Source of the DNA: a virus
DNA: 64,000 bases
IMG/VR virus record: IMGVR_UViG_3300028027_000061
Reading direction: 5' to 3' (one strand)
Shown: one piece after another, positions 16,486 through 43,186 of the stretch
How the letters are laid out: each line of letters begins with the position of its first letter
Position numbering within the stretch: the stretch's first letter is position 1
Made by a program: the position numbers and the translations under genes
Notes under the pieces: generated by a model
Databases searched by the model: none
What the model was told of the DNA's origin: nothing
Seen by the model: only the letters and a program-made list of their open reading frames with translations

Positions 16486-16487
16486 GT

Positions 16488-19306: not shown

Positions 19307-19331
19307 CTTTTGCCTAGTTTTAGGGTAGAAT
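19304..19331 (+). promoter_or_regulatory. early promoter TTGACT-N16-TAGAAT
   Basis: Same family. Downstream aaaaggaactagattATG. Confidence 0.5.
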
Positions 19332-19358
19332 GGTAATACTAAGAAAAGGAACTAGATT

Positions 19359-19646
19359 ATGATTGATATTTTGACCAATACTAAAGATGCCAGTGTTTTT
19401 GACAAGTTTGACCAACTGCGTATCTCTGAATCTCGACTAGATTCCACCATTCGTTACTTCCCTGAGAGCAGTGAGATTGCTCGGCAGAAGTTTATCATTG
19501 CAGATCTACAGTCCAACATGACCAGTGCTGAACTGGTTGAGTATGATACAATCAAGAATGCAGTTGCCACTGCTGAAGAACTCAAGAAGCAACGTGCTGC
19601 TGACATCAAGCGCATGAACGAAAACCGTGATAGTCAGAGCATCTAA
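19359..19646 (+). CDS. hypothetical protein
   Basis: 95 aa. Confidence 0.4.
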   Translation: MIDILTNTKDASVFDKFDQLRISESRLDSTIRYFPESSEIARQKFIIADLQSNMTSAELVEYDTIKNAVATAEELKKQRAADIKRMNENRDSQSI

Positions 19647-19843
19647 TGGGACACTATGATGATGAACCACGTCGTCCATGGGGGCAAACTTGGCGTGATC
19701 AGTGGCCGCACAACATCCGAGGTAAGTCGGCAGATGTTGTCATTCTGGATGAATACACTGAAAATCTAGGTGATGCACTGAATACGCACATGGCAGACTC
19801 ATACAAGCAGACTGCATTAGATAAACTGTTCGGAGTAAAATAA
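19646..19843 (+). CDS. hypothetical protein
   Basis: 65 aa. Confidence 0.3.
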   Translation: MGHYDDEPRRPWGQTWRDQWPHNIRGKSADVVILDEYTENLGDALNTHMADSYKQTALDKLFGVK

Positions 19844-19928
19844 TGACTGAGCAAGAATGGAAGAAACTACCACTACCAACTGAATCACCACTGATTCCGT
19901 ATAAGCGATATCGTGGTAGCAAGGTAAC

Positions 19929-20207
19929 ATGGTCGAGTGGCAAGACTGCCTACTACTGGGTGGAGTATCACTTTTGATTGTAACTTACCTACCATGGTTG
20001 ATGTCTGCCATGACTATCTGGATGACGTTGCTGGCAGGTAACAATCATCCACGTGCATGGGCAGTTGGACTGATCAATCAGGTGTTCTGGGTAACATGGA
20101 TTATTGCCAGTCAGACGTGGGGACTGATTCCCATGAGCATTGCACTGGGCATTGTCTATGCTCGTAATCATTTTAAATGGAATACAAAGGAGAAATCTAA
20201 TGCTTGA
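19929..20207 (+). CDS. small multi-TM membrane protein
   Basis: Three hydrophobic helices. Confidence 0.35.
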   Translation: MVEWQDCLLLGGVSLLIVTYLPWLMSAMTIWMTLLAGNNHPRAWAVGLINQVFWVTWIIASQTWGLIPMSIALGIVYARNHFKWNTKEKSNA

Positions 20208-20616
20208 ATGTTTAATTATGGGTGACAGTATCGCAGTTGGCACCAAGATGTTTGCACCCACTGAGTGCGTATCCTACTCCAAGGGTGGATACAACACGTG
20301 GCAGTGGAACAAACGCTGGGGTAGCACACCACTGGAAGCAAAGACTGTAGTAATCAGTCTGGGTACCAATGATCACAACGGTGTGAATACCTTCAAAGAA
20401 CTGTCGAAGGTTCGATATCGTATTCGCTCCGTGAAGGTCGTATGGATTATGCCTCCGTGTAACAGTGGATTCTGCAAACCCAAGGTAAATGCCGTCGTAA
20501 AGCAGATTGCTGCACAATACAATGATGTCACTATCTCTACATCCTATGTCCAACCTGACAAAATCCATCCATCATGGCGTGGATACAAGGATCTGGTAAA
20601 GAAGTCTGGTATCTGA
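20200..20616 (+). CDS. SGNH/GDSL-type hydrolase
   Basis: Block I MGDSIAVG and block III GTNDH. Confidence 0.5.
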   Translation: MLECLIMGDSIAVGTKMFAPTECVSYSKGGYNTWQWNKRWGSTPLEAKTVVISLGTNDHNGVNTFKELSKVRYRIRSVKVVWIMPPCNSGFCKPKVNAVVKQIAAQYNDVTISTSYVQPDKIHPSWRGYKDLVKKSGI

Positions 20617-27410: not shown

Positions 27411-27932
27411 ATGCCAGCTAGATTTCTAATCAGTGATACCCATTTTGGTCATGCCAGCACATGGGAAAAGTTTACTCTAGAGGATGGTAGTCCTCTCCGT
27501 CCGTTCACCTCCACTGAGGAGATGGACGAGACAATGGTAGACAACTGGAACAAGACAGTTCGTCCGCAAGATACAGTGTATCATCTTGGGGATGTAGTAA
27601 TCGCCCGACGCCATCTGGAAACAGTGAAGCGTCTGAATGGGCGGAAAATCCTTATCCGTGGAAACCATGACATTTACAAGGATAAGGACTATTATGGGGC
27701 AGGATTCGAGCAGATTCATGGCGTTCGCGTGTTTGTGGATCAGTTCATCCTGTCTCATATTCCCCTTCACCCAGACTGTGTAGGTGAGCGGTTCAAACGT
27801 AACGTCCACGGTCACCTGCACGGTAATCGGATTATGCTTTATAATCAAGTCGATCCTCGGTACCTGTGTGTATGCGTGGAGCAGATTAACTACACACCGA
27901 TTTCTTTTGACGATGTGTTGAAAATGACTTGA
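27411..27932 (+). CDS. calcineurin-like metallophosphoesterase
   Basis: Motifs ISDTHFGH, GNHD, GHLHG. Confidence 0.6.
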   Translation: MPARFLISDTHFGHASTWEKFTLEDGSPLRPFTSTEEMDETMVDNWNKTVRPQDTVYHLGDVVIARRHLETVKRLNGRKILIRGNHDIYKDKDYYGAGFEQIHGVRVFVDQFILSHIPLHPDCVGERFKRNVHGHLHGNRIMLYNQVDPRYLCVCVEQINYTPISFDDVLKMT

Positions 27933-27957
27933 CAAACCATACAACTTATAGTATAAT
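27929..27957 (+). promoter_or_regulatory. early promoter TTGACA-N17-TATAAT
   Basis: Consensus. Confidence 0.5.
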
Positions 27958-27983
27958 GGTTCTTTATTATGAAAGGTGAAATT

Positions 27984-28535
27984 ATGATTGATACGAGCAA
28001 GATTATCCATGTTTCTGAATGGCGTAAGGTTTCGGAACTTCCGTCGACTCCTGCGCGACAGACTGCTCTAGATGAGAAGTATAGCAAGTATGGTGTGTAT
28101 CAGGTTGCCGAGGAAGCAGATATTGACTTGATTGGTGATGACTTAGTAAGTCCCCACATCGGTTATACTGGTAAGTCAGGAAATATCCACGATCGAACTT
28201 ATCATATCCGAATGACGGCAAATTCTAAGACTGCTACTTCGCATGGCGCAGGAGTGTTCATTCGTAAAAATCTTGATATTGATAACTGTTATGTTCGCTG
28301 TTTGTATACCGACGAAAATTCATTTGCGTTGTTGGAGCAAGATATTCAACAAGAAACTATGAAGCAATTCGGATACACGTTTAAGTGGCGTGAAGCATCA
28401 GGTGGAACAGATGGCAATTACACTAATGCTACTGTTCTCGCTGAGAAACTTTCAAACGAAGAACGTAAGAATCTTATCTTTTATCTCAACGAACTGATCA
28501 AAGAAGATTTACTTGCTGAATTTATGTCTCGTTGA
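27984..28535 (+). CDS. hypothetical protein
   Basis: RBS gaaaggtgaaattATG. 183 aa. Confidence 0.4.
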   Translation: MIDTSKIIHVSEWRKVSELPSTPARQTALDEKYSKYGVYQVAEEADIDLIGDDLVSPHIGYTGKSGNIHDRTYHIRMTANSKTATSHGAGVFIRKNLDIDNCYVRCLYTDENSFALLEQDIQQETMKQFGYTFKWREASGGTDGNYTNATVLAEKLSNEERKNLIFYLNELIKEDLLAEFMSR

Positions 28536-28575
28536 CCCTGTCTATATACTAGGTAGGTTTTAATAAGGAGTTTAT

Positions 28576-29913
28576 ATGGTTAAAGTTATTGTCGCCGATT
28601 CTAAACTAGATTGCGAGCATCTGCTCGGTCAATATCTAGATGAGAGTCATTTCGACATTGTGGTCAATGAAGATACAGACTGTTATAAAGAGTCTGATTC
28701 TCTGCTCGATACAGAGTTGACTGAAAACAGGATTGCATTTAAGTTTCGTAAGAACTTCTTCTCGCCAGAAGAACAGGAGCAGGCATACATTGGTCTGCGC
28801 GAAGCAGCAACCGAATCACAGAATCGTGGTCTGGCAGCAGGTCCACGTGGTGAGTTGCTAGGCGTAGAAGGTCGCGGTGGTCGCGACTGGGTAACTGATT
28901 ACGAACTCGAGATTCTTGATTTTCTGATGACAGATAAGGGTCGACTGATCGACGAACTTAGTATCGAGAGCATTCGTGCTAAGCATGCAGGTGCACCACG
29001 ATCTAATGCAGATGAAACTCGAGGCGCAGTCTGGTTGCGCAGTCAAGTATGTAAAGTATATCCAGAATATTTTGGTTGGTTCGACGTATGGGTCGACAGT
29101 CTAGAAACAAAGAGTAAAGAAGATGTTGCAAAGGAAGCGCGAAATATCGCAGAGAACTGGATTTCAACAACCAACTATGCTAAGTCGGTTTTCTCAGGCG
29201 TTGCTGGATGGTATGACCGATATCCTAGAATTCCTTTCGGTCGTGCTACTACTTACACTCGTGACAATTTTGATAAGTTTAAGTTGGCCTTTCCTTTTCT
29301 ACAATCTCTTAATCGCGGGTTTAAAGAACTCCTCCCTCGGCGTTGGTCTAACCAAAAGAGTGCCGTGGATACAATCGATAGTCGATTCGTGGTCCCAGAA
29401 ACAGTATTCACCACGATCACCGTCAACAAGTCTTTCCGAACGGCAGCGCATCGTGACGCAGGCGATTTTGCTGATGGTCTCAGTAATCTTCTGGTCGTTG
29501 GTAGTGGTGACTATACTGGCGGTTATCTAATCTTTCCTGAGTATCGCATCGCAGTGAATGTTCGTCCAGGTGACTTGTTGCTAGTCAGCAATCATGAGAT
29601 CATTCACGGTAACACCGAGATTAAACTGACAAGTCCAGATGCTGAGCGTATTTCGTTGGTTTGCTATTTGCGCGAGAACATGCTAGAACTTGGTTCATAT
29701 GAATATGAAACAACTCGCGAGCAATATGTCATTGACCGCAGAACTAATAGAGAACACCACCACTATCGTCCACTCTGGAATGGCGTATCTCCAGGAATGT
29801 GGGACGAACAAGAATGGTATGACTACCTCGAAACTAAACTTGGTCGAGATACAGTTGCCAAGTATCATCCTAAAGCATACCAAACAACATCAACACTTGG
29901 AGATCTATTTTAA
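28576..29913 (+). CDS. TET/JBP-family 2OG-Fe(II) dioxygenase (nucleobase hydroxylase-like)
   Basis: HxD ... H core: TAAHRDAGDFADG ... GGYLIFPEY ... GDLLLVSNHEIIHG. 445 aa. Sits directly upstream of a GT-A glycosyltransferase. Confidence 0.5.
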   Translation: MVKVIVADSKLDCEHLLGQYLDESHFDIVVNEDTDCYKESDSLLDTELTENRIAFKFRKNFFSPEEQEQAYIGLREAATESQNRGLAAGPRGELLGVEGRGGRDWVTDYELEILDFLMTDKGRLIDELSIESIRAKHAGAPRSNADETRGAVWLRSQVCKVYPEYFGWFDVWVDSLETKSKEDVAKEARNIAENWISTTNYAKSVFSGVAGWYDRYPRIPFGRATTYTRDNFDKFKLAFPFLQSLNRGFKELLPRRWSNQKSAVDTIDSRFVVPETVFTTITVNKSFRTAAHRDAGDFADGLSNLLVVGSGDYTGGYLIFPEYRIAVNVRPGDLLLVSNHEIIHGNTEIKLTSPDAERISLVCYLRENMLELGSYEYETTREQYVIDRRTNREHHHYRPLWNGVSPGMWDEQEWYDYLETKLGRDTVAKYHPKAYQTTSTLGDLF

Positions 29914-30722
29914 TGGAATATAGTATTGCTATTCCGTCTTATCATCGTGAACATACTATTCAGAATAAGACGTTGAAAGTTCTTGAATCATATAACATCG
30001 ATCCTGCTAAAATCACGATCTTTGTTAATGATCAGGATGAAGGCGAATATGATCGATATGCTAATGCGTTGAAGGAAAACCCTTACGCAAAGGATATCCA
30101 GATTGTTCGTGGTGTTCCAACTATCGGAAAACAACGTAACTTTATTGAACGTTGGTATCCGGAAGGCACACGACTGATGATGTTCGATGATGATATTGAA
30201 GAAGTTCAAGTCAAAGTCAGTGAACAGAAGTTGGGTCGTGTCGAAGATCTCGAGCGAGAAATCTTTATTCGTGGATTTGAGGAATGCGAGAAGGTAGGTG
30301 CTAAGACCTTTGGTATCTACGCAGCATCGAATGCATTCTTTATGAAAGATCGAGTATACAATGACATTTGCTATATCATTGCCTCGATGTTTGGTGTGAT
30401 TGTTGAACATGATGATTTTCTCGCTCGAGTAACCAACCATGGTGAAGACTACGAATATTCTATTCGCCAGTATATTAAGAATGGTGTTCTTGCTCGCCTT
30501 GACAACTACACAGTCAAGTCTCGGTACTACAAGGAAGAAGGTGGACTTCAAGATGTTCGCACTAAGGAATATGTGTATGACAGTGTGAAGATTATTGCGG
30601 ACGAGTTCCCCGACCTTTGCACGATGTATATCCGCGAAACTACTGGACATGCTGAATTGAAACTGCATGACCGCAACAAGAAGTATCGTAAAGTAGAATC
30701 TTCACTAGAGGATCTATTTTAG
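29913..30722 (+). CDS. GT-A glycosyltransferase (TET-associated-like)
   Basis: IAIPSYHRE start and DxD-like MFDDDIEE. ATGG overlap with the upstream gene. Confidence 0.45.
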   Translation: MEYSIAIPSYHREHTIQNKTLKVLESYNIDPAKITIFVNDQDEGEYDRYANALKENPYAKDIQIVRGVPTIGKQRNFIERWYPEGTRLMMFDDDIEEVQVKVSEQKLGRVEDLEREIFIRGFEECEKVGAKTFGIYAASNAFFMKDRVYNDICYIIASMFGVIVEHDDFLARVTNHGEDYEYSIRQYIKNGVLARLDNYTVKSRYYKEEGGLQDVRTKEYVYDSVKIIADEFPDLCTMYIRETTGHAELKLHDRNKKYRKVESSLEDLF

Positions 30723-30759
30723 TATTGACTTATCCCTGTAAATGTAGTATAGTCAGTTA

Positions 30760-31878
30760 ATGATACTAGAAAAAACAGATGCAGAATACATTGGTCGTCG
30801 ATTTATTGATTATATGTCAAACTATAATCGTATCGACGACCACATGCGTATGAAAAAACTTGAGCGATTAAAAACTCTTCCTTCCACACTTCCAGGATAT
30901 GAACCAGAGAATATGTTGTTCTCTGATTTTAGTATGCACCCAGAAGATATGGAATTTGAGATCTTTGAACCAACTGCCAGCGAGTTCTCGACTATGGTTG
31001 AGATTACTTCTTCTTTCTGCAACGAGAACTCATTCGGCAAAGAAATTAAATTTATTGTTCGCGAGAAGAACAGTGGTAAGTATGTTGGTTTCTGTCGAGT
31101 CGCAAGCCCATTCATCAATTCTAGACCGAGGAATGAATGGTTCGGGCAAGTCCCCGATCTAAAGTCATTCAACAAGCATGCAGTAATGGGATTCATTATT
31201 GTTCCAACACAACCGTTCGGTTTTAATTATCTCGGCGGTAAACTGCTTGCACTTCTTTGCGCATCTCATGAATTTCGTGAAATGTTCAATAAGAAGTATG
31301 ATATGGAAACTTGTCTCTTTGAAACGACATCATTATACGGAAATATCAAGCAAGCATCGCAGTATGATGGTCTTAAACCATTTTTACGGTACACTGGCGA
31401 CACTGTTAGCAATTTTCTCCTCTCATTCTCCGATGATTTTTGGTTTGAGACCTTAAATTGGTTTGCAAGCAAAAATAATGGCGAACCTTTGTTCGGCAGA
31501 GAGGGAATTGCGTCGTATAAGATGAAAATGCAAAATAAAATGATGTCAATTATCAAAAATTCGCTAAAATATCATAATTCTAGCGAACTTTTGGCGTTTA
31601 CAGACGCAATTCAGGCGAACAAAGACGTTACGACGCAAAAAAGATTTTATATTTCAACTTATGGGTACGAAAATTCGAAAAATTACATCCTCGGAACCGA
31701 TAAAACGCTGATCAAGAGCAAAGAAAACTTCGACAAGCACTATTCAGATAATATTATTCGCTGGTGGAAGAAAAAAGCGTCTTCAAGATACGAAAATCTG
31801 AAGTCAGACGGAAGATTGCGTAACAATCTTGAAATTTGGAACAATGACACCATTGATACAATTGATATCATCCGTTGA
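30760..31878 (+). CDS. hypothetical protein (372 aa)
   Basis: Long ORF in the same operon. No confident family. Confidence 0.4.
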   Translation: MILEKTDAEYIGRRFIDYMSNYNRIDDHMRMKKLERLKTLPSTLPGYEPENMLFSDFSMHPEDMEFEIFEPTASEFSTMVEITSSFCNENSFGKEIKFIVREKNSGKYVGFCRVASPFINSRPRNEWFGQVPDLKSFNKHAVMGFIIVPTQPFGFNYLGGKLLALLCASHEFREMFNKKYDMETCLFETTSLYGNIKQASQYDGLKPFLRYTGDTVSNFLLSFSDDFWFETLNWFASKNNGEPLFGREGIASYKMKMQNKMMSIIKNSLKYHNSSELLAFTDAIQANKDVTTQKRFYISTYGYENSKNYILGTDKTLIKSKENFDKHYSDNIIRWWKKKASSRYENLKSDGRLRNNLEIWNNDTIDTIDIIR

Positions 31879-31886
31879 TATAAATA
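31879..31886 (+). promoter_or_regulatory. T4-type late promoter candidate (TATAAATA)
   Basis: Exact TATAAATA octamer 14 nt upstream of ATG 31900. Confidence 0.35.
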
Positions 31887-31899
31887 CTACATAACATAT

Positions 31900-33177
31900 G
31901 TGAGTATAACAATGGCAACAATAGAGCAACTCAATAATATTAAACAAATCATCGAGGGTGTAGATGGGTTCTCTATAAGAACCTCTACACCCTCAAAGAT
32001 TGTAGTCGATTGCGACAAAGACAGACAAGAAGCAAAAACTCTTCTTGAGTCTACATTCAAAGACAACGACATTAAATTTAAAGAACAGATTGTTTCTGGT
32101 TCTTCTTTTCCTGCAACAGTGATTGATGGGCAAAGTCTCAATATCATTTACAAGAACAAACGTGGTGGAGGGATGCAAGAAACAACACTAAATTCTTCGA
32201 TCACCGAACTGTTTCCTTGTATTGCATTCTTGACAAAGATTGAAAATCAAGATTTAAGCACGATTGATAAGTTTTACGCTGCAATATTAAAAAATAACAG
32301 CACAGATCTAAGTTGTTACATTAGAAATGACAATATTGCTGGAAAAGAATTCGTAGATAAAGCAGAAACCTCTTCGAAGTTCAAACAGAAAACAACTGGC
32401 GCACTTGCTGTCCTAAAATTCATCCGAGAACAAGATAAAGGTAAACCAATAACTGATGTTTATTGGGGATATAGAAACAAACCAACTGGTGTTCTTCCAA
32501 ACCACAAAGGTGACATATTTTTAAAGTTCAATGATAACTCTATGGTTGGTGTCTCGATAAAATCAGGCGGTGCCAAAACACAAGAACCTAAATTGAACAC
32601 ATATGTAAATCCTATTATGGAGTGGTTTGGTAAAAAAGCAGAATTCGATAAAATGAAAGTAGAAGCATTTAATCTGTTCTATACTGATATTCCAGGAATG
32701 CCGAAAGATCCCAAGAAAGTTGGATCTAGAGAGTTCTACGATTCACTGGGTAAATACGAACTTTCCAACAAACAAGATTATGATAAGAAGTATGATGCTG
32801 TGTTGGAGTATATGCGTTCTAAACTGGTAGAACTATTATCAGCGAATGATGCTAAAACAAAGAAATGGTTGACGGAAGTCGTTGCTGGTGAACAAGAGGG
32901 TGTTCCTCTGGTCGTGGTAAAGGCAATCGAAACAACAGGCGACTTTGAGTTGCAGACAGATGAAGATGTTATTAAATCATGCGTAGTCAGATCTAAAAAG
33001 ACGGGTGGATTGAAGATAGAGAAATCCACTACATCAAAACAGAATTTTGACATATCATTGACTTGCAATCTCAGAGTTACTAAACTTAATTTCAGTATAA
33101 GATCGAACAAGGTGGGTGTTCAACATAAGTTGGGGCAATTCCTAAATTTGGCAGTTAAATTTAACGGTGCCAAGTAA
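31900..33177 (+). CDS. putative PD-(D/E)xK-type nuclease
   Basis: Candidate D-x(n)-[ES]xK core (HKGDIFLKF ... VGVSIKSGG). Weak family call. Confidence 0.3.
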   Translation: MSITMATIEQLNNIKQIIEGVDGFSIRTSTPSKIVVDCDKDRQEAKTLLESTFKDNDIKFKEQIVSGSSFPATVIDGQSLNIIYKNKRGGGMQETTLNSSITELFPCIAFLTKIENQDLSTIDKFYAAILKNNSTDLSCYIRNDNIAGKEFVDKAETSSKFKQKTTGALAVLKFIREQDKGKPITDVYWGYRNKPTGVLPNHKGDIFLKFNDNSMVGVSIKSGGAKTQEPKLNTYVNPIMEWFGKKAEFDKMKVEAFNLFYTDIPGMPKDPKKVGSREFYDSLGKYELSNKQDYDKKYDAVLEYMRSKLVELLSANDAKTKKWLTEVVAGEQEGVPLVVVKAIETTGDFELQTDEDVIKSCVVRSKKTGGLKIEKSTTSKQNFDISLTCNLRVTKLNFSIRSNKVGVQHKLGQFLNLAVKFNGAK

Positions 33178-33183
33178 AATCTT

Positions 33184-33191
33184 ATAAATAG
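33184..33191 (+). promoter_or_regulatory. T4-type late promoter candidate (TATAAATA)
   Basis: Exact octamer 7 nt upstream of ATG 33198. Confidence 0.35.
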
Positions 33192-33197: not shown

Positions 33198-33485
33198 ATG
33201 ACATACGATGCAATATTTAAATTAATTGGAGACGTGGGTTTCCCAATCGCAGGCGCTTTACTTGCGGGTGTCTTTGTGTATTTTGTAATCAACTACATTC
33301 TGGAGAGCGTTGTTAAGGCGCTCAAGGGAATGCAGGGTATTATTATGGGACTCGACAATCGAGTCAAGACAATGAACCATGATATTATTCGCGTTGATGC
33401 AGTTGTTAGTTCCGCTTTAGGTCTTAAACCAGATCTAGATAGAATAGCACGAGCAGACGGGAAAAACGATGCTCGGAAAGATTAA
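33198..33485 (+). CDS. small membrane protein, tandem paralog A (holin-like?)
   Basis: One N-terminal TM helix (FPIAGALLAGVFVYFVINYIL). Paralogous to the next ORF. Both end in ...KD. Confidence 0.4.
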   Translation: MTYDAIFKLIGDVGFPIAGALLAGVFVYFVINYILESVVKALKGMQGIIMGLDNRVKTMNHDIIRVDAVVSSALGLKPDLDRIARADGKNDARKD

Positions 33486-33751
33486 TGGACCCATTAATTA
33501 TAACAGAACTAGTTAAACAATATGGATTCCCGATCGTCGCCTCTGTCGGCATGGGTTACTTTGTTTGGTTCATTTATAAGTTCGTAACTGATAAATTAAT
33601 GCCGTTGATTAGTGAAACCAATGTGATTTTGATTGCGTTGATTGACCGTGTTCGCATGCTTGACAACGATTTAATTAGATTAAACCAGAAGGTGAGCGTA
33701 GTTTTACAAATAAAAGAGGATCATAGCAATGACAATCAACCTAAAGATTGA
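33485..33751 (+). CDS. small membrane protein, tandem paralog B
   Basis: Same architecture (GFPIVASVGMGYFVWFIY). ATGG overlap. Confidence 0.4.
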   Translation: MDPLIITELVKQYGFPIVASVGMGYFVWFIYKFVTDKLMPLISETNVILIALIDRVRMLDNDLIRLNQKVSVVLQIKEDHSNDNQPKD

Positions 33752-33819
33752 ATTACTAAAGGTCTTCACAATTGATTTTAATTTTTCTTCTGACAACAAA
33801 AACAAAAAGGAAGAGAAAA

Positions 33820-34269
33820 ATGCTAAAACGAGCGATGATGCTCCTGACGCTACTAAGTCTAAGTAGTCCAGCATACGCAGATCCTATAGTCCAACAGTTT
33901 AAATCACCTTCCTTTACAGGTTACGGGTGGTCTTCACACGTGCAGTCAATCGACGCACAAGAGCGTTCGCGAGAGCAGGCAATTAAAGATGCTGAGGCAG
34001 CAAAGGCAGCATTAGCAAGAGCAGAGGCATCTAATACGCCACTCGCCAAATTCATGGCGCTGTTTACCTCTCAGGTATATGCCCAACTTGCTACACAACT
34101 TTCGAACAATTTGTTCGCAGAAGGTGGGAATGCCAGTGCTGGAACATTTAACCTCGACGGTAACTCTGTGAGTTATGTAAAGACTGGGACAGAAGTTAGA
34201 CTAACAGTTGTCGATAAGAATGGCAATACTACAGTTGTTGTCGTTCCTATTGCTACATTCGCGTTTTAA
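33820..34269 (+). CDS. csgF: CsgF-like curli assembly protein
   Basis: Signal peptide (MLKRAMMLLTLLSLSSPAYA). The C-terminal ...SYVKTGTEVRLTVVDKNGNTTVVVVP resembles the CsgF beta-rich C-terminus. Immediately upstream of csgG. Confidence 0.45.
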   Translation: MLKRAMMLLTLLSLSSPAYADPIVQQFKSPSFTGYGWSSHVQSIDAQERSREQAIKDAEAAKAALARAEASNTPLAKFMALFTSQVYAQLATQLSNNLFAEGGNASAGTFNLDGNSVSYVKTGTEVRLTVVDKNGNTTVVVVPIATFAF

Positions 34270-34278
34270 GGCAGAGTT

Positions 34279-35103
34279 ATGAAAAAAATAATTCTCCTTC
34301 CAATTCTACTAGCAACTTCTGGTTGTGTTGGTGCGCTTCATCCTACTGCCAACCAATCATATCTGTTCAGAGATGATGCAGAAGTCAAACGTTTTGCGAA
34401 TCCAAAATTGTTCAAGAATCTTCCTGAATTAGATGGCCAACCAATTCCTATCGCGCTGTATTCATTTACTGATAGAACTGGTCAACGTAAACCATCTTCA
34501 ACTCTTGCAAGTTTCTCGACTGCAGTAACTCAAGGTGCAGATGCTTATCTGATCAAAACACTGCAAGATACAGGAGACGGTAAGTGGTTTACACCAGTCG
34601 AGCGTGTTGGTATTGATTCGCTGATCAAAGAACGTCAACTTGTTCGTCAAATGCGCGAACAACTTTCTGGCGAGAGTGCTGAACCTCTTCCACCACTCAA
34701 GGTTGCTGGTATCATCTTAGAAGGTGGTATTATTGACTATAACTCGAATATTAAAACAGGTGGTACTGGTGCTAGATTCCTTGGCATCGGTCCATATCAA
34801 CAATACACCCAAGATCAGGTAACAATTAGTCTTCGTCTGGTTTCTGTCCAAACTGGCGAAGTTCTAAATTCAGTTACAGTGGAAAAGACAGTTCTCTCGA
34901 CTTCCGAGGGGGTGACTGCGTTCACATTCTTCGACATGGCGACTAGAGCATTTGAATTTGATGGACAACAAACAAGTAATGAAGCAGGTAGTTATGCGAT
35001 CCGTTCTGCCATAGAAACGGCCGTTGTTGAGTTGATCAAGGATGGTGAAAGAAAGAATCTATGGAGATTCAAACAAAAGGAAACGACAAATGAAACTAAG
35101 TAA
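34279..35103 (+). CDS. csgG: CsgG-family curli secretion channel lipoprotein
   Basis: Lipoprotein signal with lipobox LLATSGC. 274 aa. CsgG-like central region (...IDSLIKERQLVRQM ... ILEGGIIDYNSNIKTGG...). Confidence 0.6.
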   Translation: MKKIILLPILLATSGCVGALHPTANQSYLFRDDAEVKRFANPKLFKNLPELDGQPIPIALYSFTDRTGQRKPSSTLASFSTAVTQGADAYLIKTLQDTGDGKWFTPVERVGIDSLIKERQLVRQMREQLSGESAEPLPPLKVAGIILEGGIIDYNSNIKTGGTGARFLGIGPYQQYTQDQVTISLRLVSVQTGEVLNSVTVEKTVLSTSEGVTAFTFFDMATRAFEFDGQQTSNEAGSYAIRSAIETAVVELIKDGERKNLWRFKQKETTNETK

Positions 35104-35863
35104 GTTTTTATTAGTTGGTGCTGCTCTTTGTTATGGAACATCTGTGATTGCACAAACTGTACTGCCAACAGCACCAACTCCTCCAGCAATTGTAACAACT
35201 TCGCCAAATGAAACAGAGGCAAATACTGTTGCAACTACAAATAAGGTATATATCGATCAAGAAGGGGGCAACGTAGATGTTAACATCGTTCAAACTGGCA
35301 CTGCTAACGTTATCGGTTCTTCTATTGATCCTATTTACCTACGTGGTGATAACCAAAGCGTTATCGCAATACAAACAGGCAATGGAAACCAACTTTATAT
35401 GGGTGTCGTATCCGACACAGGAGCACAAGGAATCGCCGATGTAACAATTCGTCAAATTGGCGATTTAAACACTGCTACTATTCGTTGTGGGACAGAAGTA
35501 ACTGACTCCTCATGTAATCAACTCGACATGAATGCCAAGTTCACTGGTAATAACAACTCGTTTGTTTTCCGTGGTTCGGGTGCTAATATCCGTAACTCTA
35601 TGGATTTCAACGGTAACAATAACACAATCAACATGGATGCACTATCACCAAATGCGTCACAAACTATTCTGGTGACAGGAAACTACAATGACTTTGATGT
35701 TACACAAACTGGTACTGGTGGAACATTCGGTCACTCGCTTTATGTTAATCTAACAGGTTCATTAAACACTATAACAACACAACAGTATGGTGTTTCTGAG
35801 ACTGTGATCAATATTAATAGTGTGGGATCAAATGGCACGTTTAATATCAAAACTGGTCACTAA
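35090..35863 (+). CDS. secreted curlin-repeat (CsgA/CsgB-like) amyloid subunit candidate
   Basis: Signal peptide. Imperfect ~22-aa repeats of the form x-Q-x-G-x-G/N-N-x-(A/V)-x-I, e.g. IDQEGGNVDVNIVQTGTANVI, IAIQTGNGNQLYM, FNGNNNTINM. N/Q/G/T-rich. Confidence 0.5.
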   Translation: MKLSKFLLVGAALCYGTSVIAQTVLPTAPTPPAIVTTSPNETEANTVATTNKVYIDQEGGNVDVNIVQTGTANVIGSSIDPIYLRGDNQSVIAIQTGNGNQLYMGVVSDTGAQGIADVTIRQIGDLNTATIRCGTEVTDSSCNQLDMNAKFTGNNNSFVFRGSGANIRNSMDFNGNNNTINMDALSPNASQTILVTGNYNDFDVTQTGTGGTFGHSLYVNLTGSLNTITTQQYGVSETVININSVGSNGTFNIKTGH

Positions 35864-36977
35864 TCTTCTACTGATATTTCTGTTATCGACTCCTGCCTTT
35901 GCGGATATTGGGTCGATAACAGATTTCAGAGGAGGTGGTGCCATTAAGCGTGGCGCCAAGACTACAGTTGCATCTAAGGGTGCAAGAGTTCAAAAGATGG
36001 ACACTGTTTCAACAAACAGTCAAGGCAGATTTAGGATAACATTTAATGACTCGACTACCGTCAATATTACAGAAAACTCTCGCCTTCTTGTGGATGACTT
36101 TGTGTATGATGGGGGAGGGAACACGAAGGGCAAACTTGGACTTCGGGTCGCGCTTGGCACCGTCAGATACGCATCAGGTAAAGTCGCAAAAACAAATCCA
36201 CGAGGCGTAAACATTCGCACACCGACTGCCACTATCGCAGTCCGTGGCACAGACTTCGTTATGTCGGTTGATGAAGCAGGTCGTTCTACGGTCGTGCTGG
36301 TTCCCGAATGTTATAACGAACTAGACATTACAAAACAAACTGCGGAATGTCCGAATGGAATGATAGATGTCATTACAGCATCTGGCGTAGTTACATTAAC
36401 ACAACCATTCCAAGCAACAGTTGTGGAAAACAACTTTGCGCCACCTGCTCCGCCAGTAGTTATCAATCCATTAGTTAAGACATTAGATAACAATGTTCAA
36501 ATTGTTCCGTTGGAAACAGATGATGGTCAGAGTTTGCTCCAACTTGCCAGAGATAGTCTAAAGAAATTTACGAATCCCGCAAAAGCAGCATCGGATGATA
36601 ACAAAGACCCAGATGCAGGCACAAACGATAACGTGGAACAAGTTACAGTTGCTATGCTTCGCCAAGCAACACCGCAAGAACTTCTGGATGTTTATGCCGA
36701 GTTCAACGAAGGAACCAAACCAGCAGAAACAATCTATACTAATGTATCGCCAACATTCAAGAAGAACGTTCAGGTTGGTTGGGTGTATACTCGATTATCG
36801 GACGACAAACAACAAGCAATTACTGTTTGGTTAGAAAAAGGAACAGAAGCGCAAGTCGTATCTGTTCAAAATGGATTAGTAGATGTTTACAACTTTATGG
36901 ACGACAAGTGGACAACATCGGGAACTGGTAGACCACAGGGCAATATCACAGTGATGCAAGAAACAGGTGCAAGATGA
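35832..36977 (+). CDS. secreted FecR-domain-like protein
   Basis: Signal peptide (LLLIFLLSTPAFA). Central beta-rich region RFRITFNDSTTVNITENSRLLVDDF ... LRVALGTVRYASGK. Confidence 0.35.
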   Translation: MARLISKLVTNLLLIFLLSTPAFADIGSITDFRGGGAIKRGAKTTVASKGARVQKMDTVSTNSQGRFRITFNDSTTVNITENSRLLVDDFVYDGGGNTKGKLGLRVALGTVRYASGKVAKTNPRGVNIRTPTATIAVRGTDFVMSVDEAGRSTVVLVPECYNELDITKQTAECPNGMIDVITASGVVTLTQPFQATVVENNFAPPAPPVVINPLVKTLDNNVQIVPLETDDGQSLLQLARDSLKKFTNPAKAASDDNKDPDAGTNDNVEQVTVAMLRQATPQELLDVYAEFNEGTKPAETIYTNVSPTFKKNVQVGWVYTRLSDDKQQAITVWLEKGTEAQVVSVQNGLVDVYNFMDDKWTTSGTGRPQGNITVMQETGAR

Positions 36978-38428
36978 AAAAACTAATCGCTCTATTCCTA
37001 CTATTCTTTGCAATTCCAGCATTCGCACAAGTTACAAACTATGGATTTGAGAATGGCGACTATGCTGGGTGGACAGCAAGTAATGGTAGCACAACACTAA
37101 GAACATCTTGGAGCGATTCAGGTAATGGCGTCCAAGTAACTACTGGTGTGCAAAATTATTGTCCAGGTGGTGGTAAGTGTTGGACAATTACACCATACGG
37201 TTCATACATGGTTTCTCTGCAAGCAGGCGGTAGTTCTCCACAATTTAATGCTGCAATGACAACACTTGGTCTGCAAAGTTCTACCATCACAACAATTAGA
37301 AATACCATTTACTCCAATGGTAACATGTATCCAACTAATGCTACTTCGATTAGTAGAACAGTCTTTCTTCAGGCAGGTGTTACATACACCTATGCTTGGC
37401 AATATCTTTCAACTGATTATGTTCCATACAATGATGGATCGATGATCACTGTTACTGGTGGACCTGGAACTGCGACTATTAATGGTCAGACACAAGACTA
37501 TGCTCTACTCGGATTTACGAACCAAGGTACTGGTAATTATTCGGTAGGATCTTATGGTGCTACTGGTTGGCAGGTCGCAGTGTTTACTGTTCCTACTGAT
37601 GGTAACTATCTTCTAGGATTTGCTTCGTTCAATCTAGGTGATACTGCATTGTCACCAATTCTATTCATCGACCAGATGCAAGGAACAACTTCACTGAATG
37701 GCACAACATTTACACCTGTTGCACCAAACGCTGGTTCTACTGCGCCACCGCCTCCTGCACCTGAACCACCTGCTCCAACATATCCTCTCGCTTCTATCAG
37801 CGCAAACCAATCATTGAAGATTAATCAAACAAATGCGATTACACAAAACTCTATCTATATCAATGTAACGGGCTCTAGCAATTCTGTTTACATCGAACAG
37901 TTCTCTAAGCAGAACCAAATCCGTGGTGTGAATGGCGCACAAGCAATGACGATTAATGGCAACAGCAACAGCGTAACTATTAATCAGGGAACAGCGACAA
38001 CACCAATTGGTAAGAACTTAGCAGAAGTTTCCGTTACTGGTAATAACAACATAGTCTCATTGACGCAACAACAAGGTAGCAAATACGCCGAGATTATCAC
38101 TAATGGTCTCGGTAATCAAATCTCAGCGCAACAAAAAGATGCTGGAGGAAAATCGTTGTTTATCAATGCTTTAGGAAACTCTAATAATATCAGTACCTTA
38201 CAACAGGGAACTGCTAACCATTTTCTAGATATCAGCGCACCATTTGGTGGAGTTACTGCATCCGTCACTCAATTAGGTTCTTCGATGAAGCAATTTCAAC
38301 TTTTACTAAATAGTCCTGGAATTGGTGTAACTGTCACGCAAAATAACTTGACCGCTGCCGACTCTGCGAAAATGGAAATAACATGCACGACTGGACCATG
38401 TAATGGATACTCTTATACAAAAAACTAA
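36974..38428 (+). CDS. secreted protein with N-terminal beta-sandwich/lectin-like domain and C-terminal curlin-type repeats
   Basis: Signal peptide. Pro-rich linker (APPPPAPEPPAPT). C-terminal repeats SIYINVTGSSNSVYIEQ / AMTINGNSNSVTINQG / EVSVTGNNNIVSLTQQ / LFINALGNSNNISTLQQG. Confidence 0.45.
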   Translation: MKKLIALFLLFFAIPAFAQVTNYGFENGDYAGWTASNGSTTLRTSWSDSGNGVQVTTGVQNYCPGGGKCWTITPYGSYMVSLQAGGSSPQFNAAMTTLGLQSSTITTIRNTIYSNGNMYPTNATSISRTVFLQAGVTYTYAWQYLSTDYVPYNDGSMITVTGGPGTATINGQTQDYALLGFTNQGTGNYSVGSYGATGWQVAVFTVPTDGNYLLGFASFNLGDTALSPILFIDQMQGTTSLNGTTFTPVAPNAGSTAPPPPAPEPPAPTYPLASISANQSLKINQTNAITQNSIYINVTGSSNSVYIEQFSKQNQIRGVNGAQAMTINGNSNSVTINQGTATTPIGKNLAEVSVTGNNNIVSLTQQQGSKYAEIITNGLGNQISAQQKDAGGKSLFINALGNSNNISTLQQGTANHFLDISAPFGGVTASVTQLGSSMKQFQLLLNSPGIGVTVTQNNLTAADSAKMEITCTTGPCNGYSYTKN

Positions 38429-40457
38429 AAAAGTTCTACTCTCGCCTTGGTTGGCACTAATTACTTTTGCGGTATTGTTAACAGTAAAACTAGCAAACCC
38501 ATACTTGGTTGAATCCACAAGATTGAAGTTTTATGATTATTTGATGCTCGGTTCACCGACGCAATCCGAACAAATTGTAACTGTTAATATTGGGGAGAAA
38601 GCAATTGAAAAATATGGACAGTGGCCTTTCCCTCGCGAAGTCCACGCTAAAATTATTAGCGATATTTATGGCAGAGGGGCTGCTCTTGTTGGTAGCACTA
38701 TACTTATGCCTGAGCCTGATCGTCTCGGCACTGACGGAGCTCTTGCTGATGCTCTGAGCAAGTATCCAGTAGTCCTGAGTCAGACAGTAACCGATTCATG
38801 TAAGGCAGGGAACCAGAATATCGCTCGGACTGGCGTTGCCGTCGTCGGCGACGGAGAAGCAACTGAATTTCTTCCTCAATACCCGTGCGTTCTAAGTAAT
38901 ATTCCACCTCTGCAAGAAGCAGCCGTCGGTGTAGGGATAACGTCGACTCTACCCGAGACTGATGGGGTTGTGAGGCGAGTTCCTCTTCTATCTCAATCAA
39001 AAGGCGAATACTATCCTGCATTTGCGATAGAGATGCTGCGTGTAGCTGCAGGAGACTCTTCGTATCAAGCGAAGATAAATCAGACTGGGGTCGAAGCATT
39101 ACGAATTCCTTCTTTTGAAACTATTAACACAGATGAATATGGAAGAACGTTCATTAATCCTAACTACCAATTTCCGTCATACGAAATTGGAGAGGATCCT
39201 TTACCTGTCCTGAGTGGTAAAATCGTGATTGTTGGCGTAACTGCTGCTGGTATTTCGAATCCTGTAGCGACTCCTTCAGGTGCGCAACATCCCCATCAAC
39301 TCCAGGCGAGTATTCTTGAAACTCTGATAAATGGGGATTCTGTTTCGGTTCCGAACTGGTCAGCAATTGCGGATCTTGCTGCATTTCTTGGTCTTGCTCT
39401 GGCATTGATCATTCTTTCTCGTTTTAGATTCTCTATAATTTATATTGCTATTTTACTCGGTGGATATTTCTATCTACCTGTTTATCTGTTCGCGAGCAAA
39501 GGTATTCTGTTCGATGTAACATTTAACATATTTGCTATTGCTCTCATCTATATTCACATCTTTACCGCAAAGTATATTTCTGAATATCTACAGAAGCAAC
39601 AAATTAAGAAACAGTTCGGAACCTATCTGTCACCAGATCTTGTTGCTCAGTTACAGAGACAACCAGAACTTCTGGCGCTTGGTGGCGACTCCCGAGAACT
39701 ATCAATTATGTTTACAGACGTTCGTGGATTCACTACAATCAGTGAACACTACGGCGAAGATGTTCAAGGTCTTACTAAGATTATGAACCGCTACATGACA
39801 GTGATGACAAGAGCAATCCTCGAGAACAAGGGGACACTAGACAAGTATATCGGCGATGCTCAAATGGCATTCTGGAATGCACCATTAGATAATAATAAAC
39901 ATGCCGTAGACGCAGTAAGAACTGCTTTTCAGATGTTAAAAGATTTGGAGACTTTCAATGAAGATATTAAAGAAGAAGGCATTCCAGCTTTCGGTATGGG
40001 TCTTGGTATTAACACTGCCACTGTGGTTGTTGGTAATATGGGCAGCGATCAGCGTTTCGATTATACTTGTTTGGGCGATGGCGTTAATCTGGCTGCTCGT
40101 CTCGAAGGTCAATCCAAACCTTATGGCGTCAAACTCGTCCTCGGACCACAAACTGCCGAATTGGTTGGGGATGTATACCAAGTAGTAGAACTTGACTTGA
40201 TTGCAGTTAAAGGTAAGACAGAACCTGCTAGAATATATACGGCATTCCCGTTCTTTGATGCAGCAGGACATTTACAACATGATAAGTTCTTACAACTGTA
40301 TCGTGAAGGTAAATGGGAAACTGCTAAAAAGTTTGCCAGCGACTTAAAGAAGTGCTGGCAAGGGGAGTTGGTAAATTACTATGACATGATGCTCGAGCGC
40401 ATGGAGGGTGAACCTCCTGCTAACTTCGACGGAATATATCGTGCAACGTCCAAGTAA
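38403..40457 (+). CDS. CHASE2-domain class III adenylate/guanylate cyclase
   Basis: N-terminal TM plus a large periplasmic domain. About four TM helices. C-terminal CYCc catalytic core (FTDVRGFTTISE ... YIGDAQMAFWNAP ... GLGINTATVVVGNMGS ... DYTCLGDGVNLAARLEG). Confidence 0.6.
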   Translation: MDTLIQKTKKVLLSPWLALITFAVLLTVKLANPYLVESTRLKFYDYLMLGSPTQSEQIVTVNIGEKAIEKYGQWPFPREVHAKIISDIYGRGAALVGSTILMPEPDRLGTDGALADALSKYPVVLSQTVTDSCKAGNQNIARTGVAVVGDGEATEFLPQYPCVLSNIPPLQEAAVGVGITSTLPETDGVVRRVPLLSQSKGEYYPAFAIEMLRVAAGDSSYQAKINQTGVEALRIPSFETINTDEYGRTFINPNYQFPSYEIGEDPLPVLSGKIVIVGVTAAGISNPVATPSGAQHPHQLQASILETLINGDSVSVPNWSAIADLAAFLGLALALIILSRFRFSIIYIAILLGGYFYLPVYLFASKGILFDVTFNIFAIALIYIHIFTAKYISEYLQKQQIKKQFGTYLSPDLVAQLQRQPELLALGGDSRELSIMFTDVRGFTTISEHYGEDVQGLTKIMNRYMTVMTRAILENKGTLDKYIGDAQMAFWNAPLDNNKHAVDAVRTAFQMLKDLETFNEDIKEEGIPAFGMGLGINTATVVVGNMGSDQRFDYTCLGDGVNLAARLEGQSKPYGVKLVLGPQTAELVGDVYQVVELDLIAVKGKTEPARIYTAFPFFDAAGHLQHDKFLQLYREGKWETAKKFASDLKKCWQGELVNYYDMMLERMEGEPPANFDGIYRATSK

Positions 40458-41468: not shown

Positions 41469-41870
41469 ATGACTATGCACCTGATGTCTCATGCGTATAC
41501 CACCACTAATACGAAGAAGCGCAAGACTTCTAATAAGGGTGTGACTGCCAAGTATGCACAGGACTGGGTGGATTACAACAAGCAGATGAAGCGGATTGGT
41601 TGTAAGACCAAAACGTTCGACGAGTATGTCCAATATCGTCAAGGCAATTACAAACCCAAGTTGCGTGGCACACCTCTCCCTGACTACCAAGTCAGCGACC
41701 ATCGTCAGAAGTATCCTTCTGGTGACGGTATTGGCGTAACCTTCGCTCGCAAAGAGAATACATATACAGGTACGCTGATCAAAGGAATCGCCACCATGCA
41801 TAAATCTAATGCAGTTCCCATTATAAATGATGAGCAAGCAATTGAAGTAGCAAGGATGCGACGAGGATGA
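41469..41870 (+). CDS. basic hypothetical protein (first gene of the radical-SAM operon)
   Basis: 133 aa. K/R/T-rich N-terminus. Confidence 0.4.
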   Translation: MTMHLMSHAYTTTNTKKRKTSNKGVTAKYAQDWVDYNKQMKRIGCKTKTFDEYVQYRQGNYKPKLRGTPLPDYQVSDHRQKYPSGDGIGVTFARKENTYTGTLIKGIATMHKSNAVPIINDEQAIEVARMRRG

Positions 41871-43186
41871 ATGTACGGGAAACATTAGATTCCGTTGGTA
41901 AGGGATTTTGTCCACAGAAATGGAGATGGCTTGGTCTCTCTTTACATACAGGACAATCTCATAGTTGTTATCATCCTCCATTTTTAACAGTTCCACTCGA
42001 TGAGATTAAATTAGATCCGTCTGCTCTACATAACAATTCTTCTGCAAAACAAGATCGAAAGAAAATGCTCGAGGGCGGAAGACCTGACGGGTGCACATTT
42101 TGTTGGAACATCGAGGATATCGGAGGAAAAAGCGATCGTATTTTACGAAACTATCCGTCAAAAAATAGTATGCTCGATTACATGTCCGAAACAGAAGTTC
42201 TACGCAATACTCCATGGGATTCTAATGTAAATCCATACATGGTAGAAGTTAGTTTTTCTAACTCCTGTAATTTTAAGTGTGGTTACTGTTGTCCGTCGGT
42301 CTCTTCTCTGTGGGAAGATGAAGTAAACCAACATGGTAATTATGATTTACAGTACGACCAATATGGGATAAACGGTAAGATATATTCTGAGAAAGAATAC
42401 AATCCATATGTTGAAGCATTCTGGAAATGGTGGCCTGATTTAAAAAATGATTTGAGGATTTTTCGAATTACTGGCGGTGAACCTCTGATGACAACAAACA
42501 CATTCAAACTATTAGATATGCTGAAGGAAGACGGTAATCCTGAATTATCGCTCCAAATAAACACAAATCTGGGAGTGAGTAATCGCAAAGTTAAAGATTT
42601 CTGTGGGCGAGTGCAGGAATTGGTTGAAATAAACCATATTAAAAATTTTAGACTATTCACCAGTCTTGAGTGCACAGATAAGCAAGCAGAATATATTCGT
42701 CGTGGTCTAAACTATGAATTGTTCTTGGAAAATGTTAACACTGTTCTAGAAACGGTGCCGACTGCATATCTAAGTTTCATGTCAACATATAACGTTCTTA
42801 CGGTTCCCTACTTCAAAGATTTTTTGCAGTTAATTGTAGAACTTCGCAAAAAGTGGGGTGATCGGATTCTTATGGATATTCCGCACCTTAAAGAACCACC
42901 TCATTGGACAATGAATATTCTTCCAAAATCATGGGGTGTGCACATAGATAATGACGTTGAATTTATGCTCCTGGATGGAGGATTTCGAGATGTTGAGATT
43001 GCTAAAATGAAACGGGTGCGTGATTATTTTTATAATGACACACATAACATAACAGAAGAATATAGATTGAATGCTAGAAAAGATTTTGCCAAGTTCTTTC
43101 CGGAATATGACCGTAGAAGCAACAGTAATTTGGCAGAAACGTTTCCCGAATTTATAGAATTTTTAGAATGGTGTAAGGAATTATAA
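41867..43186 (+). CDS. radical SAM enzyme, paralog 1 (N-terminal Cys motif read as SPASM-like)
   Basis: CxxxCxxC SNSCNFKCGYCCP. GGEP motif FRITGGEPLM. N-terminal FCPQKW ... SCYHP ... GCTFCW Cys motif. Confidence 0.6.
   Translation: MNVRETLDSVGKGFCPQKWRWLGLSLHTGQSHSCYHPPFLTVPLDEIKLDPSALHNNSSAKQDRKKMLEGGRPDGCTFCWNIEDIGGKSDRILRNYPSKNSMLDYMSETEVLRNTPWDSNVNPYMVEVSFSNSCNFKCGYCCPSVSSLWEDEVNQHGNYDLQYDQYGINGKIYSEKEYNPYVEAFWKWWPDLKNDLRIFRITGGEPLMTTNTFKLLDMLKEDGNPELSLQINTNLGVSNRKVKDFCGRVQELVEINHIKNFRLFTSLECTDKQAEYIRRGLNYELFLENVNTVLETVPTAYLSFMSTYNVLTVPYFKDFLQLIVELRKKWGDRILMDIPHLKEPPHWTMNILPKSWGVHIDNDVEFMLLDGGFRDVEIAKMKRVRDYFYNDTHNITEEYRLNARKDFAKFFPEYDRRSNSNLAETFPEFIEFLEWCKEL

Follow-up and report, generated by a model that had tools for sequence, protein, structure and literature searches.

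A TET/JBP dioxygenase and TAGT glycosyltransferase pair in a T4-like marine myophage as a likely two-enzyme pathway for DNA hypermodification

Kinetoplastids make base J in two steps, with JBP1 or JBP2 converting thymine in DNA to 5-hydroxymethyluracil (5hmU) and JGT then adding a sugar. JGT was reportedly placed in the TAGT family by Iyer et al. 2013. Phage gene clusters that follow the same logic, with a TET/JBP enzyme (5mYOX), an adjacent glycosyltransferase (GT) and post-replicative modification, have been described since 2021 (PMC8256090; bioRxiv 10.1101/2023.12.21.572611; PMC13229309), so that a hydroxylase-GT pair is already a known kind of phage system. Phage 5mYOX enzymes without a neighbouring C5-methyltransferase (C5-MT) have been classed as T-dioxygenases and are accompanied either by GTs (clade C2) or by a GATase, a P-loop kinase and AADT (clade C1), and a C5-MT co-occurs in only 6% of 5mYOX pathways (PMC13229309). 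Here we describe such a pair in a 64-kb stretch of viral DNA (IMG/VR record IMGVR_UViG_3300028027_000061), referred to below as the window. Positions 28576–33177 contain four co-directional genes that encode a TET/JBP dioxygenase (gene 1), a TAGT glycosyltransferase (gene 2), a DruA/DUF4338-like protein (gene 3) and a nuclease-like protein (gene 4). An original prediction based on the same DNA had combined all four into a single hypermodification and counter-defence module. We consider it likely that the first two constitute a two-enzyme, post-replicative pathway for hypermodification of phage DNA, most likely at thymine, and that their 3' neighbours are separate accessory genes. The two genes of the pathway are as follows.

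28576–29913, + strand: TET/JBP (5mYOX) Fe(II)/2-oxoglutarate dioxygenase, 445 amino acids (Pfam Tet_JBP)
29913–30722, + strand: TET-associated glycosyltransferase (TAGT, GT-A fold), 269 amino acids (Pfam TAGT)

The 445-residue product of gene 1 matched the Pfam family Tet_JBP (PF12851) with an E value of 1.1e-23 and 83.7 bits (gathering cut-off of 34.9) over residues 240–367, which bears out its earlier description as a TET/JBP-like protein with an HxD…H core. Residues H292-R-D294, H344 and R358, which make up the Fe(II)-binding HxD…H triad and the 2-oxoglutarate-binding Arg, were invariant in an alignment of 23 TET orthologues, and the protein could be aligned across the HxD…H region with the fungal enzyme CcTet and the Naegleria enzyme NgTet, the structures of which have both been solved. 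The catalytic domain thus delimited (approximately residues 240–367) is preceded by approximately 240 amino acids that are conserved among orthologues and that gave no match in sequence-profile searches against PDB sequences. The gene 1 product is a predicted 5-methylpyrimidine hydroxylase that most likely converts thymine to 5hmU.

The isolates nearest to the window phage with regard to the TET protein were the T4-like phages Stenotrophomonas DLP6 (48% identity) and Caulobacter Cr30 (45%). The GenBank label on the orthologues of DLP6 (L001, 7001–8347) and Cr30 (L002, 7001–8329), as well as on those of S-CBWM1 and HTVC112P, is "SNF2 DNA repair protein." A scan that covered the window protein alone yielded the Tet_JBP match and no SNF2 match, and the label appears to be a mis-transfer, probably originating from a BLAST match to JBP2. 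Most TET orthologues also contain a Cys-rich, zinc finger–like insert (C…C…C..C) in their NH2-terminal portion; the window protein is without this insert, the position of which would be after residue ~37 ("EDTDCY").

Gene 2 matched the Pfam family TAGT (PF20691) with an E value of 1.2e-12 and 48.6 bits (gathering cut-off of 27.5) over the whole profile (positions 1–205 of 205), and it matched phrog_842, annotated as "beta-glucosyl-HMC-alpha-glucosyltransferase," with an E value of 1.2e-13. The DDD sequence at residues 92–94, corresponding to the GT-A DxD motif for metal and nucleotide-sugar binding, was invariant in 21 TAGT homologues that shared 26–97% identity. The stop codon of the TET gene and the start codon of the TAGT gene overlap in the sequence TAATG, in agreement with the translational coupling of the dioxygenase to a GT-A glycosyltransferase that had been proposed.

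To place the pair in context, we scanned IMG/VR with the TET protein and found relatives at 196 loci, the best 80 of which (58–92% identity) were examined with all of their open reading frames (ORFs) clustered. The TAGT gene was located directly 3' of the orthologous TET gene in 20 of these 80 loci, across TET identities of 58–92%, and we therefore regard TET and TAGT as a real functional unit. The genes downstream of TET were tallied for the 67 loci of the 80 in which at least 3 kb of sequence was available on that side.

AADT/kinase-type cassette downstream of TET: 40 of 67 loci
TAGT downstream of TET: 18 of 67 loci
GT1 glycosyltransferase downstream of TET: 8 of 67 loci
Other cassette downstream of TET: 1 of 67 loci

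The first class consists of cassettes with AADT, a P-loop kinase or both, and includes a cut-off GATase/GNAT part of the cassette. Pfam matches in these relatives included ADDT (PF18724, 4.5e-20) and Ploopntkinase3 (PF18751, 8.8e-12), with GATase and GNAT alongside. The commonest such alternative comprises a GATase, an amidoligase-like protein, a GNAT, sometimes a weakly ParB_N-like protein, AADT and a P-loop kinase; the ParB-like candidate (cluster c27, 11 loci) gave a weak ParB_N match only (E = 0.052). At other loci, TET is followed by AADT, a kinase, myo-inositol-1-phosphate synthase and a small unassigned protein (as in L033), or by an N6/N4 methyltransferase with AADT and a kinase. At locus L003, it is followed by a UDP-glucose-4-epimerase-like protein, a 341-residue unknown protein and a UDP-galactopyranose mutase. 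The cassettes of the L033 type and of L003 hint at inositol- or galactofuranose-containing DNA adducts. TAGT and an AADT/kinase cassette were never found at the same locus among the 67, and comparison of the window with the proteins of the related loci revealed no AADT, kinase or ParB-like homologue in the window. It is very clear from this comparison that the decoration cassettes found behind a single orthologous "priming" dioxygenase are interchangeable.

Kinase and AADT together are known as machinery for the hypermodification of thymidine by a route whose starting point is 5hmU in DNA. Given that the kinase/AADT cassettes occupy the same slot after the orthologous TET, they would be expected to act on the same TET product. 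A screen for the C5-MT motif set FxGxG, PC[QK] and ENV, which was a motif screen and not a profile search, identified no ORF in the 64-kb window and none at the 80 related loci over a distance of approximately 8 kb from TET. Because the orthologous TET precedes a kinase and AADT cassette in 40 of 67 loci without a C5-MT-like ORF, thymine is the probable substrate. The earlier proposal that the phage hydroxylates and then glycosylates a pyrimidine in its DNA is thus upheld by the TET and TAGT profiles as far as the enzyme pair is concerned, and its choice of 5-hydroxymethylcytosine (5hmC) or 5hmU can be narrowed, with the evidence favouring 5hmU.

In the pathway that we propose, TET would hydroxylate the C5-methyl group of a pyrimidine already present in DNA, with thymine being converted to 5hmU. 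TAGT would then move a sugar from a nucleotide-sugar onto the hydroxyl group of 5hmU. The resulting base-J-like glycosyl-5hmU would be expected to hinder host restriction as well as other DNA-targeting nucleases. The grounds for the pathway are the family membership of the two proteins, their intact catalytic residues, the start/stop overlap, the recurrent adjacency of TET and TAGT, and the alternative 5hmU-decorating cassettes of sister phages.

Several points weigh against this interpretation. The choice of thymine, the nature of the sugar and the shielding of the DNA are inferred, with the modified base being read from gene context alone, and a C5-MT could be encoded outside of the visible 64 kb. 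The window TET was likened to clades C1 and C2 by gene context, not by phylogeny, and its 445 residues, including the uncharacterised but conserved NH2-terminal 240, compare with only ~290–300 residues for characterised phage T-dioxygenases (PMC13229309). Assays performed in E. coli showed no activity for some of the clade C1 enzymes that lack ParB (PMC13229309). The characterised TAGT of T2 and T6 transfers glucose onto an existing glucose, not onto the base (PMC13216743). The mutual exclusivity of TAGT and AADT is not absolute, in that Cr30 has a TAGT-like gene, at a distance, in addition to TET and an AADT-like gene. With regard to the 3' neighbours, at least seven loci (the window, L090, L085, L099, L100, L154 and L157) have gene 3 immediately before gene 4, and at L085 the pair is itself preceded by a divergent TAGT (Pfam, 1e-42) and a GT1, so that TAGT, gene 3 and gene 4 may be functionally tied.

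In a fairly unlikely alternative, the modified base would be cytosine: 5-methylcytosine would be generated by a C5-cytosine methyltransferase of the host or of another part of the phage genome, TET would oxidise it to 5hmC, and TAGT would glycosylate the 5hmC. Such a methyltransferase-TET-GT route has been established experimentally for phage TET enzymes of clades A and B with GTs (PMC8256090; bioRxiv 10.1101/2023.12.21.572611), the characterised T2/T6 TAGT functions in a pathway based on hydroxymethylcytosine (hmC) (PMC13216743), and the visible portion of the genome amounts to 64 kb. In the characterised cases, however, the C5-MT gene adjoins that for TET (PMC13229309), whereas no C5-MT-like ORF was detected by our motif screen in the window or near TET in the related loci, and 5hmU-specific kinase and AADT genes are located behind the orthologous TET in most relatives. 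Thymine therefore remains our preferred substrate.

The question of whether the pathway extends beyond TAGT concerns the remainder of the region, which contains the following features.

30725–30753, + strand: sigma-70-type promoter-like site, TTGACT-17-TATAGT (10/12), in the 37-nt gap before gene 3
30760–31878, + strand: gene 3, DruA/DUF4338-family GNAT-fold protein, 372 amino acids (Pfam DruA)
31879–31886, + strand: TATAAATA, a T4-type late-promoter-like box directly after the gene 3 stop codon and 25 nt before the ATG at 31912
31912–33177, + strand: gene 4, 421-amino-acid protein of PHROG 2496 with a tentative PD-(D/E)xK core (HinP1I/MspI type), an accessory gene

The 372-residue protein had been described as unknown; its ORF is present as predicted, and the protein can now be assigned to the DruA/DUF4338 family with a GNAT fold by Pfam and Foldseek. 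The Pfam DruA match (6.7e-12, 45.6 bits, cut-off of 27) is partial, covering profile positions 75–183 of 297, and the PADLOC DruA profile was matched with an E value of 6.2e-8. A structure model obtained with AlphaFold (AF2) on the basis of 27 homologues had a pLDDT of 82, and its top Foldseek matches in the PDB were all GNAT acetyltransferases, in keeping with a published account in which DUF4338 is a GNAT domain (PMC10853773). A sequence-profile search against PDB sequences yielded nothing informative, nor did an NCBIfam scan return anything meaningful. Application of PADLOC to the neighbouring genes detected the DruA domain only, with no DruB, DruC, DruD or DruE helicase partner. Given that the neighbours, TAGT and the 421-residue protein, had no PADLOC match, we regard gene 3 as encoding a DruA-like protein and not as part of a Druantia system. 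Attention has been drawn previously to DruA-like proteins in phages of Synechococcus, S-PRM1 among them (bioRxiv 10.1101/2025.08.05.668817). A cyanophage homologue with 50% identity to gene 3 has been annotated as "mom" on structural grounds (PMC12801897). Assignment of gene 3 itself to Mom was rejected: there was no match to PF25680 at E ≤ 1, a profile that Mu Mom matched with an E value of 2.4e-75, and the probability was 0.4% when the gene 3 family was compared with Mu Mom by hhalign.

The gene 3 family comprises more than 6,900 homologues (clusters) and is represented in many T4-like cyanophages that lack TET as well as in pelagiphage HTVC008M. We looked for TET, TAGT and gene 4 within 6 kb of gene 3 homologues at 80 IMG/VR loci (49–79% identity) and found none of them at any locus. 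Conversely, among the 80 TET loci, gene 3 was present in the five closest only.

The gene 4 ORF (31900–33177) was originally read as 425 amino acids, which is its length from a GTG codon. The ATG at 31912, yielding 421 amino acids, is the more likely start because a database relative with 99% identity (P0001) has 421 residues. The protein had no Pfam match and no profile match, including against PDB sequences. In a structure model (pLDDT of 87.8), an alpha-beta-beta-beta core bears the invariant residues E99, D201, S215-x-K217 and E225, with Ser replacing the second acidic residue of the motif. The PD-(D/E)xK motif that had been suggested for this ORF is thus tentative, as is our assignment to a HinP1I/MspI-like nuclease core, the fold of which is not secure. 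The idea that the enzyme discriminates modified from unmodified DNA draws only on the position of the gene, and we have not retained it.

Gene 4 belongs to a family of approximately 900 homologues. In T4-like cyanophages without TET (S-RIM2, ACG-2014b, S-SSM7 and Bellamy), its neighbours in the replication module are gp41 and MazG. None of the 80 TET-related loci contains gene 4, and of the 84 loci at which it was found, one alone (L090, a relative nearly identical to the window) also has TET. Locus L054, which is otherwise collinear with the window, has TET, TAGT and gene 3 but lacks gene 4, with the late-promoter box that serves the next gene coming immediately after gene 3; in the window, this second TATAAATA box is located at 33183–33190, before the gene that follows gene 4. 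Gene 4 therefore looks like an accessory gene that has been inserted here together with its own late promoter. The late-promoter-like box originally noted before gene 4 is indeed present. The five TATAAATA boxes in the window are all on the + strand and outside of long ORFs, but their number is not significantly greater than the 3.2 expected by chance, and we rejected enrichment as statistical support for late promoters. We also rejected a relationship between gene 4 and a 366-residue protein (cluster c53) encoded in a similar slot at L004, L005 and L007; BLASTP returned nothing, and c53 had no Pfam match.

At loci L087 (7760–9022), L088, L089 and L097, the gene 4 homologue adjoins a gene for a 420-residue protein that contains the motifs DxSxGxG and SPPY and that matched N6_N4_Mtase weakly (1.4e-3), below the cut-off. 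This neighbour is a probable N6/N4 DNA methyltransferase, and the juxtaposition resembles a restriction-modification arrangement.

Given that genes 3 and 4 are widely scattered among phages without TET and have their own promoter-like boxes, of early type for gene 3 and of late type for gene 4, we consider them to be separate from TET-TAGT; they are accessory genes that share one variable region. The four-gene module of the original prediction, although all four ORFs are present, is not supported for the same reasons. In its fullest form, which we consider distinctly improbable, TET would hydroxylate, TAGT would glycosylate, gene 3 would tailor the adduct (by acylation of the sugar, for example) and gene 4 would cut unmodified DNA but leave the modified DNA of the phage intact. 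The genes are co-directional and tightly packed, their order is the same at L090, and TAGT, gene 3 and gene 4 also run together in the otherwise different L085. GNATs and endonucleases recur beside phage 5mYOX genes (PMC13229309), and relatives keep their decoration genes in the region downstream of TET. The distribution of both genes among phages argues against such a module, however, with gene 3 having its thousands of homologues in phages without TET and no TET, TAGT or gene 4 nearby at the 80 loci sampled, and with gene 4 being found near TET at a single locus and otherwise beside gp41 and MazG in cyanophages. Neither gene was present at 14 of the 18 tallied TET-TAGT loci, L054 has gene 3 without gene 4, and separate promoter-like boxes precede the two genes.

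Genes 3 and 4 might instead form a pair of their own that is independent of TET and TAGT, with the GNAT transferring an acyl or aminoacyl group to DNA as a mark, much as Mu Mom does, and with unmarked DNA as the target of the nuclease-like protein. The phage would then carry a pair resembling a modification-restriction system, a possibility that we regard as very doubtful. Their adjacency recurs in the seven loci listed above at modest identity (39–73% for gene 4 and 45–70% for gene 3) and in quite different contexts, and a longer DruA-like gene is located three genes upstream of gene 4 in L087–L089. The probable methyltransferase beside gene 4 in L087–L089 and L097 and the structurally Mom-like annotation of the 50%-identical cyanophage homologue of gene 3 (PMC12801897) are also consistent with such a pair. 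The arrangement is nevertheless that of a minority, being found at approximately 10 of 84 gene 4 loci and at none of 80 gene 3 loci, and the adjacency may reflect inherited T4-like synteny beside gp41; moreover, gene 3 is not a member of the Mom family, and a nuclease fold is not securely established for gene 4. We are similarly sceptical of a second phage-borne "mark and cut" system in which the GNAT would mark DNA or the glycosyl-5hmU adduct and the late-expressed nuclease would degrade unmarked DNA of the host or of competitors. Such a system would be compatible with the recurrence of gene 3 beside gene 4 in divergent contexts and with the probable DNA methyltransferase that takes the place next to gene 4 in other phages. 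If true, it would provide a first function for the DruA/DUF4338 fold as well as a restriction-like enzyme keyed to hypermodification.

Finally, that the TET-like protein acts on RNA, protein or a small molecule and the GT on a host or virion glycan is hardly credible: the NH2-terminal 240 residues of TET are uncharacterised and the window encodes several further oxygenases as well as a GT2 and radical-SAM enzymes whose roles do not concern DNA, but the Pfam matches are to DNA-modifying families and well above cut-offs, and the orthologues are embedded in thymidine-hypermodification cassettes among replication genes (clamp and clamp loader).

Other features of the window bear on the surroundings of the TET-TAGT pair.

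27929–27957, + strand: sigma-70-type promoter-like site, TTGACA-17-TATAAT (12/12), before the 188-amino-acid gene; a consensus match only
27969–28535, + strand: 188-amino-acid gene upstream of TET, no profile match
9231–9683: dCMP deaminase (Pfam dCMP_cyt_deam_1, 3.7e-20)

The site at 27929–27957 could, as judged from its sequence, drive early transcription of the 188-residue gene, TET and TAGT, although sites of this type are not enriched in the region (18 observed versus 16.5 expected). A hairpin followed by a T-run (28537–28557) lies between the 188-residue gene and TET. The 188-residue protein had no Pfam or NCBIfam match, its gene is retained upstream of TET in L004 and L007 only (92% identity), and it is probably outside of the hypermodification pathway. 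A GIY…YIG-like pattern was apparent by eye in this protein. The dCMP deaminase that had been cited in favour of DNA modification is present; its gene is presumably an ordinary T4-like nucleotide-metabolism gene and, for this reason, does not constitute evidence of base modification. An ORF with a 2OG-FeII_Oxy_3 domain (9490–10233) overlaps the end of the deaminase ORF, and its true start is probably located further downstream.

The window is derived from a marine T4-like myophage, the full genome of which is probably 140–200 kb. It contains 12 tRNAs and a permuted tmRNA together with genes for curli-type secretion and numerous auxiliary metabolic genes, and its gp32 region resembles that of cyanophages. 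When the region was compared with 50,697 phage records by megablast, there was no near-identical genome and nothing close at the DNA level, and matches of the remainder of the window to these records were confined to cyanophage gp32. The tRNA cluster is located at the start of the window (144–3222). ARAGORN placed the tmRNA at 56200–56658, with the tag ANDNVAFAGYALAA, and it has one TATAAATA box a short way into its 5' end, at 56217, and another immediately beyond its 3' end, at 56664. The auxiliary genes (1541–20616 and 41867–43186) encode an SPFH/Band 7 protein, a GapR-like DNA-binding protein, a GT2, a Coq4-like protein, two radical-SAM enzymes, two further 2OG/Asp-Arg hydroxylase-like oxygenases, an AAA ATPase, a peroxiredoxin and a GDSL lipase. 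Downstream of the TET region, a block for curli-type (type VIII) secretion (33772–40457) encodes CsgF, CsgG, a curlin-repeat protein, a FecR-domain protein, a 484-residue unknown protein and a protein with CHASE2 and adenylate/guanylate cyclase domains; the same block is located downstream in L004, L005, L054, L087 and L090. Immediately upstream of the curli genes and behind the TATAAATA box at 33183–33190, two adjacent paralogues of ~90 amino acids (33198–33485 and 33485–33751) appear by eye to be hydrophobic and membrane protein–like. They are 83–98% conserved in relatives and are possibly holin-like.

If our interpretation of the TET-TAGT pair is correct, a lineage of T4-like marine myophages bears a base-J-like thymine sugar that is made on the polymer and not by way of a nucleotide pool of the T-even type. 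The main points of interest are the long-form dioxygenase with its uncharacterised NH2-terminal half and the clear swapping of cassettes within a T4-like lineage. The TET family provides a natural experiment in which TAGT, GT1, kinase plus amino-acid transferase, inositol-related and galactofuranose-related sets are found behind one dioxygenase. Comparison of these cassettes should be of use with regard to new DNA adducts, DNA-labelling enzymes and the diversification of marine phages against host nucleases. The DruA-like GNAT and the PHROG 2496 protein are better treated as independent accessory genes of T4-like phages.

With regard to these accessory genes, gene 3 shares both the DruA profile match and a GNAT fold with DruA of Druantia type I, from which it differs in being without the DruB–E partners. 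It also has its fold in common with Mu Mom, a DNA-modifying protein (PMC13219725), yet shows no similarity to it in sequence or profile. For gene 4, the named comparison is with R.HinP1I and R.MspI, which are monomeric type II restriction endonucleases.

The glucosylation of hmC in T-even phages, in which the T2/T6 beta-glucosyl-HMC-alpha-glucosyltransferase belongs to the same GT family (PF20691), has the same purpose of shielding DNA (PMC13216743). T-even phages make hmC before replication with the use of dCMP hydroxymethylase, whereas the hydroxymethyl group here would arise on the polymer through the action of TET, and the window contains no alpha-GT, beta-GT or thymidylate synthase–type (dCMP hydroxymethylase–type) motif. 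The T-even TAGT adds a second glucose to the first, whereas the TAGT of the window is solitary. The two-step logic of base J is shared by the window pair, but base J is a component of eukaryotic chromatin, and the J-binding and SNF2 domains of JBP1 and JBP2 are absent from the window TET.

The cassettes for thymidine hypermodification (5hmdU DNA kinase with AADT/aGPT-Pplase, GATase and amidoligase) occupy in most of the tallied relatives the slot after TET that is taken here by the glycosyltransferase alternative, the window phage itself being without these genes. As in the T-dioxygenase clades, with their links of orthologues to GATase, kinase and AADT (C1) or to GTs (C2), no C5-MT adjoins the window TET (PMC13229309). 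The ParB-dependent subclass of T-dioxygenases has an adjoining ParB-like activator, in contrast to the window. The pair resembles the 5mYOX-GT clusters in its combination of a TET/JBP enzyme with an adjacent GT, and it differs from those described in its setting, that of a T4-like marine myophage.

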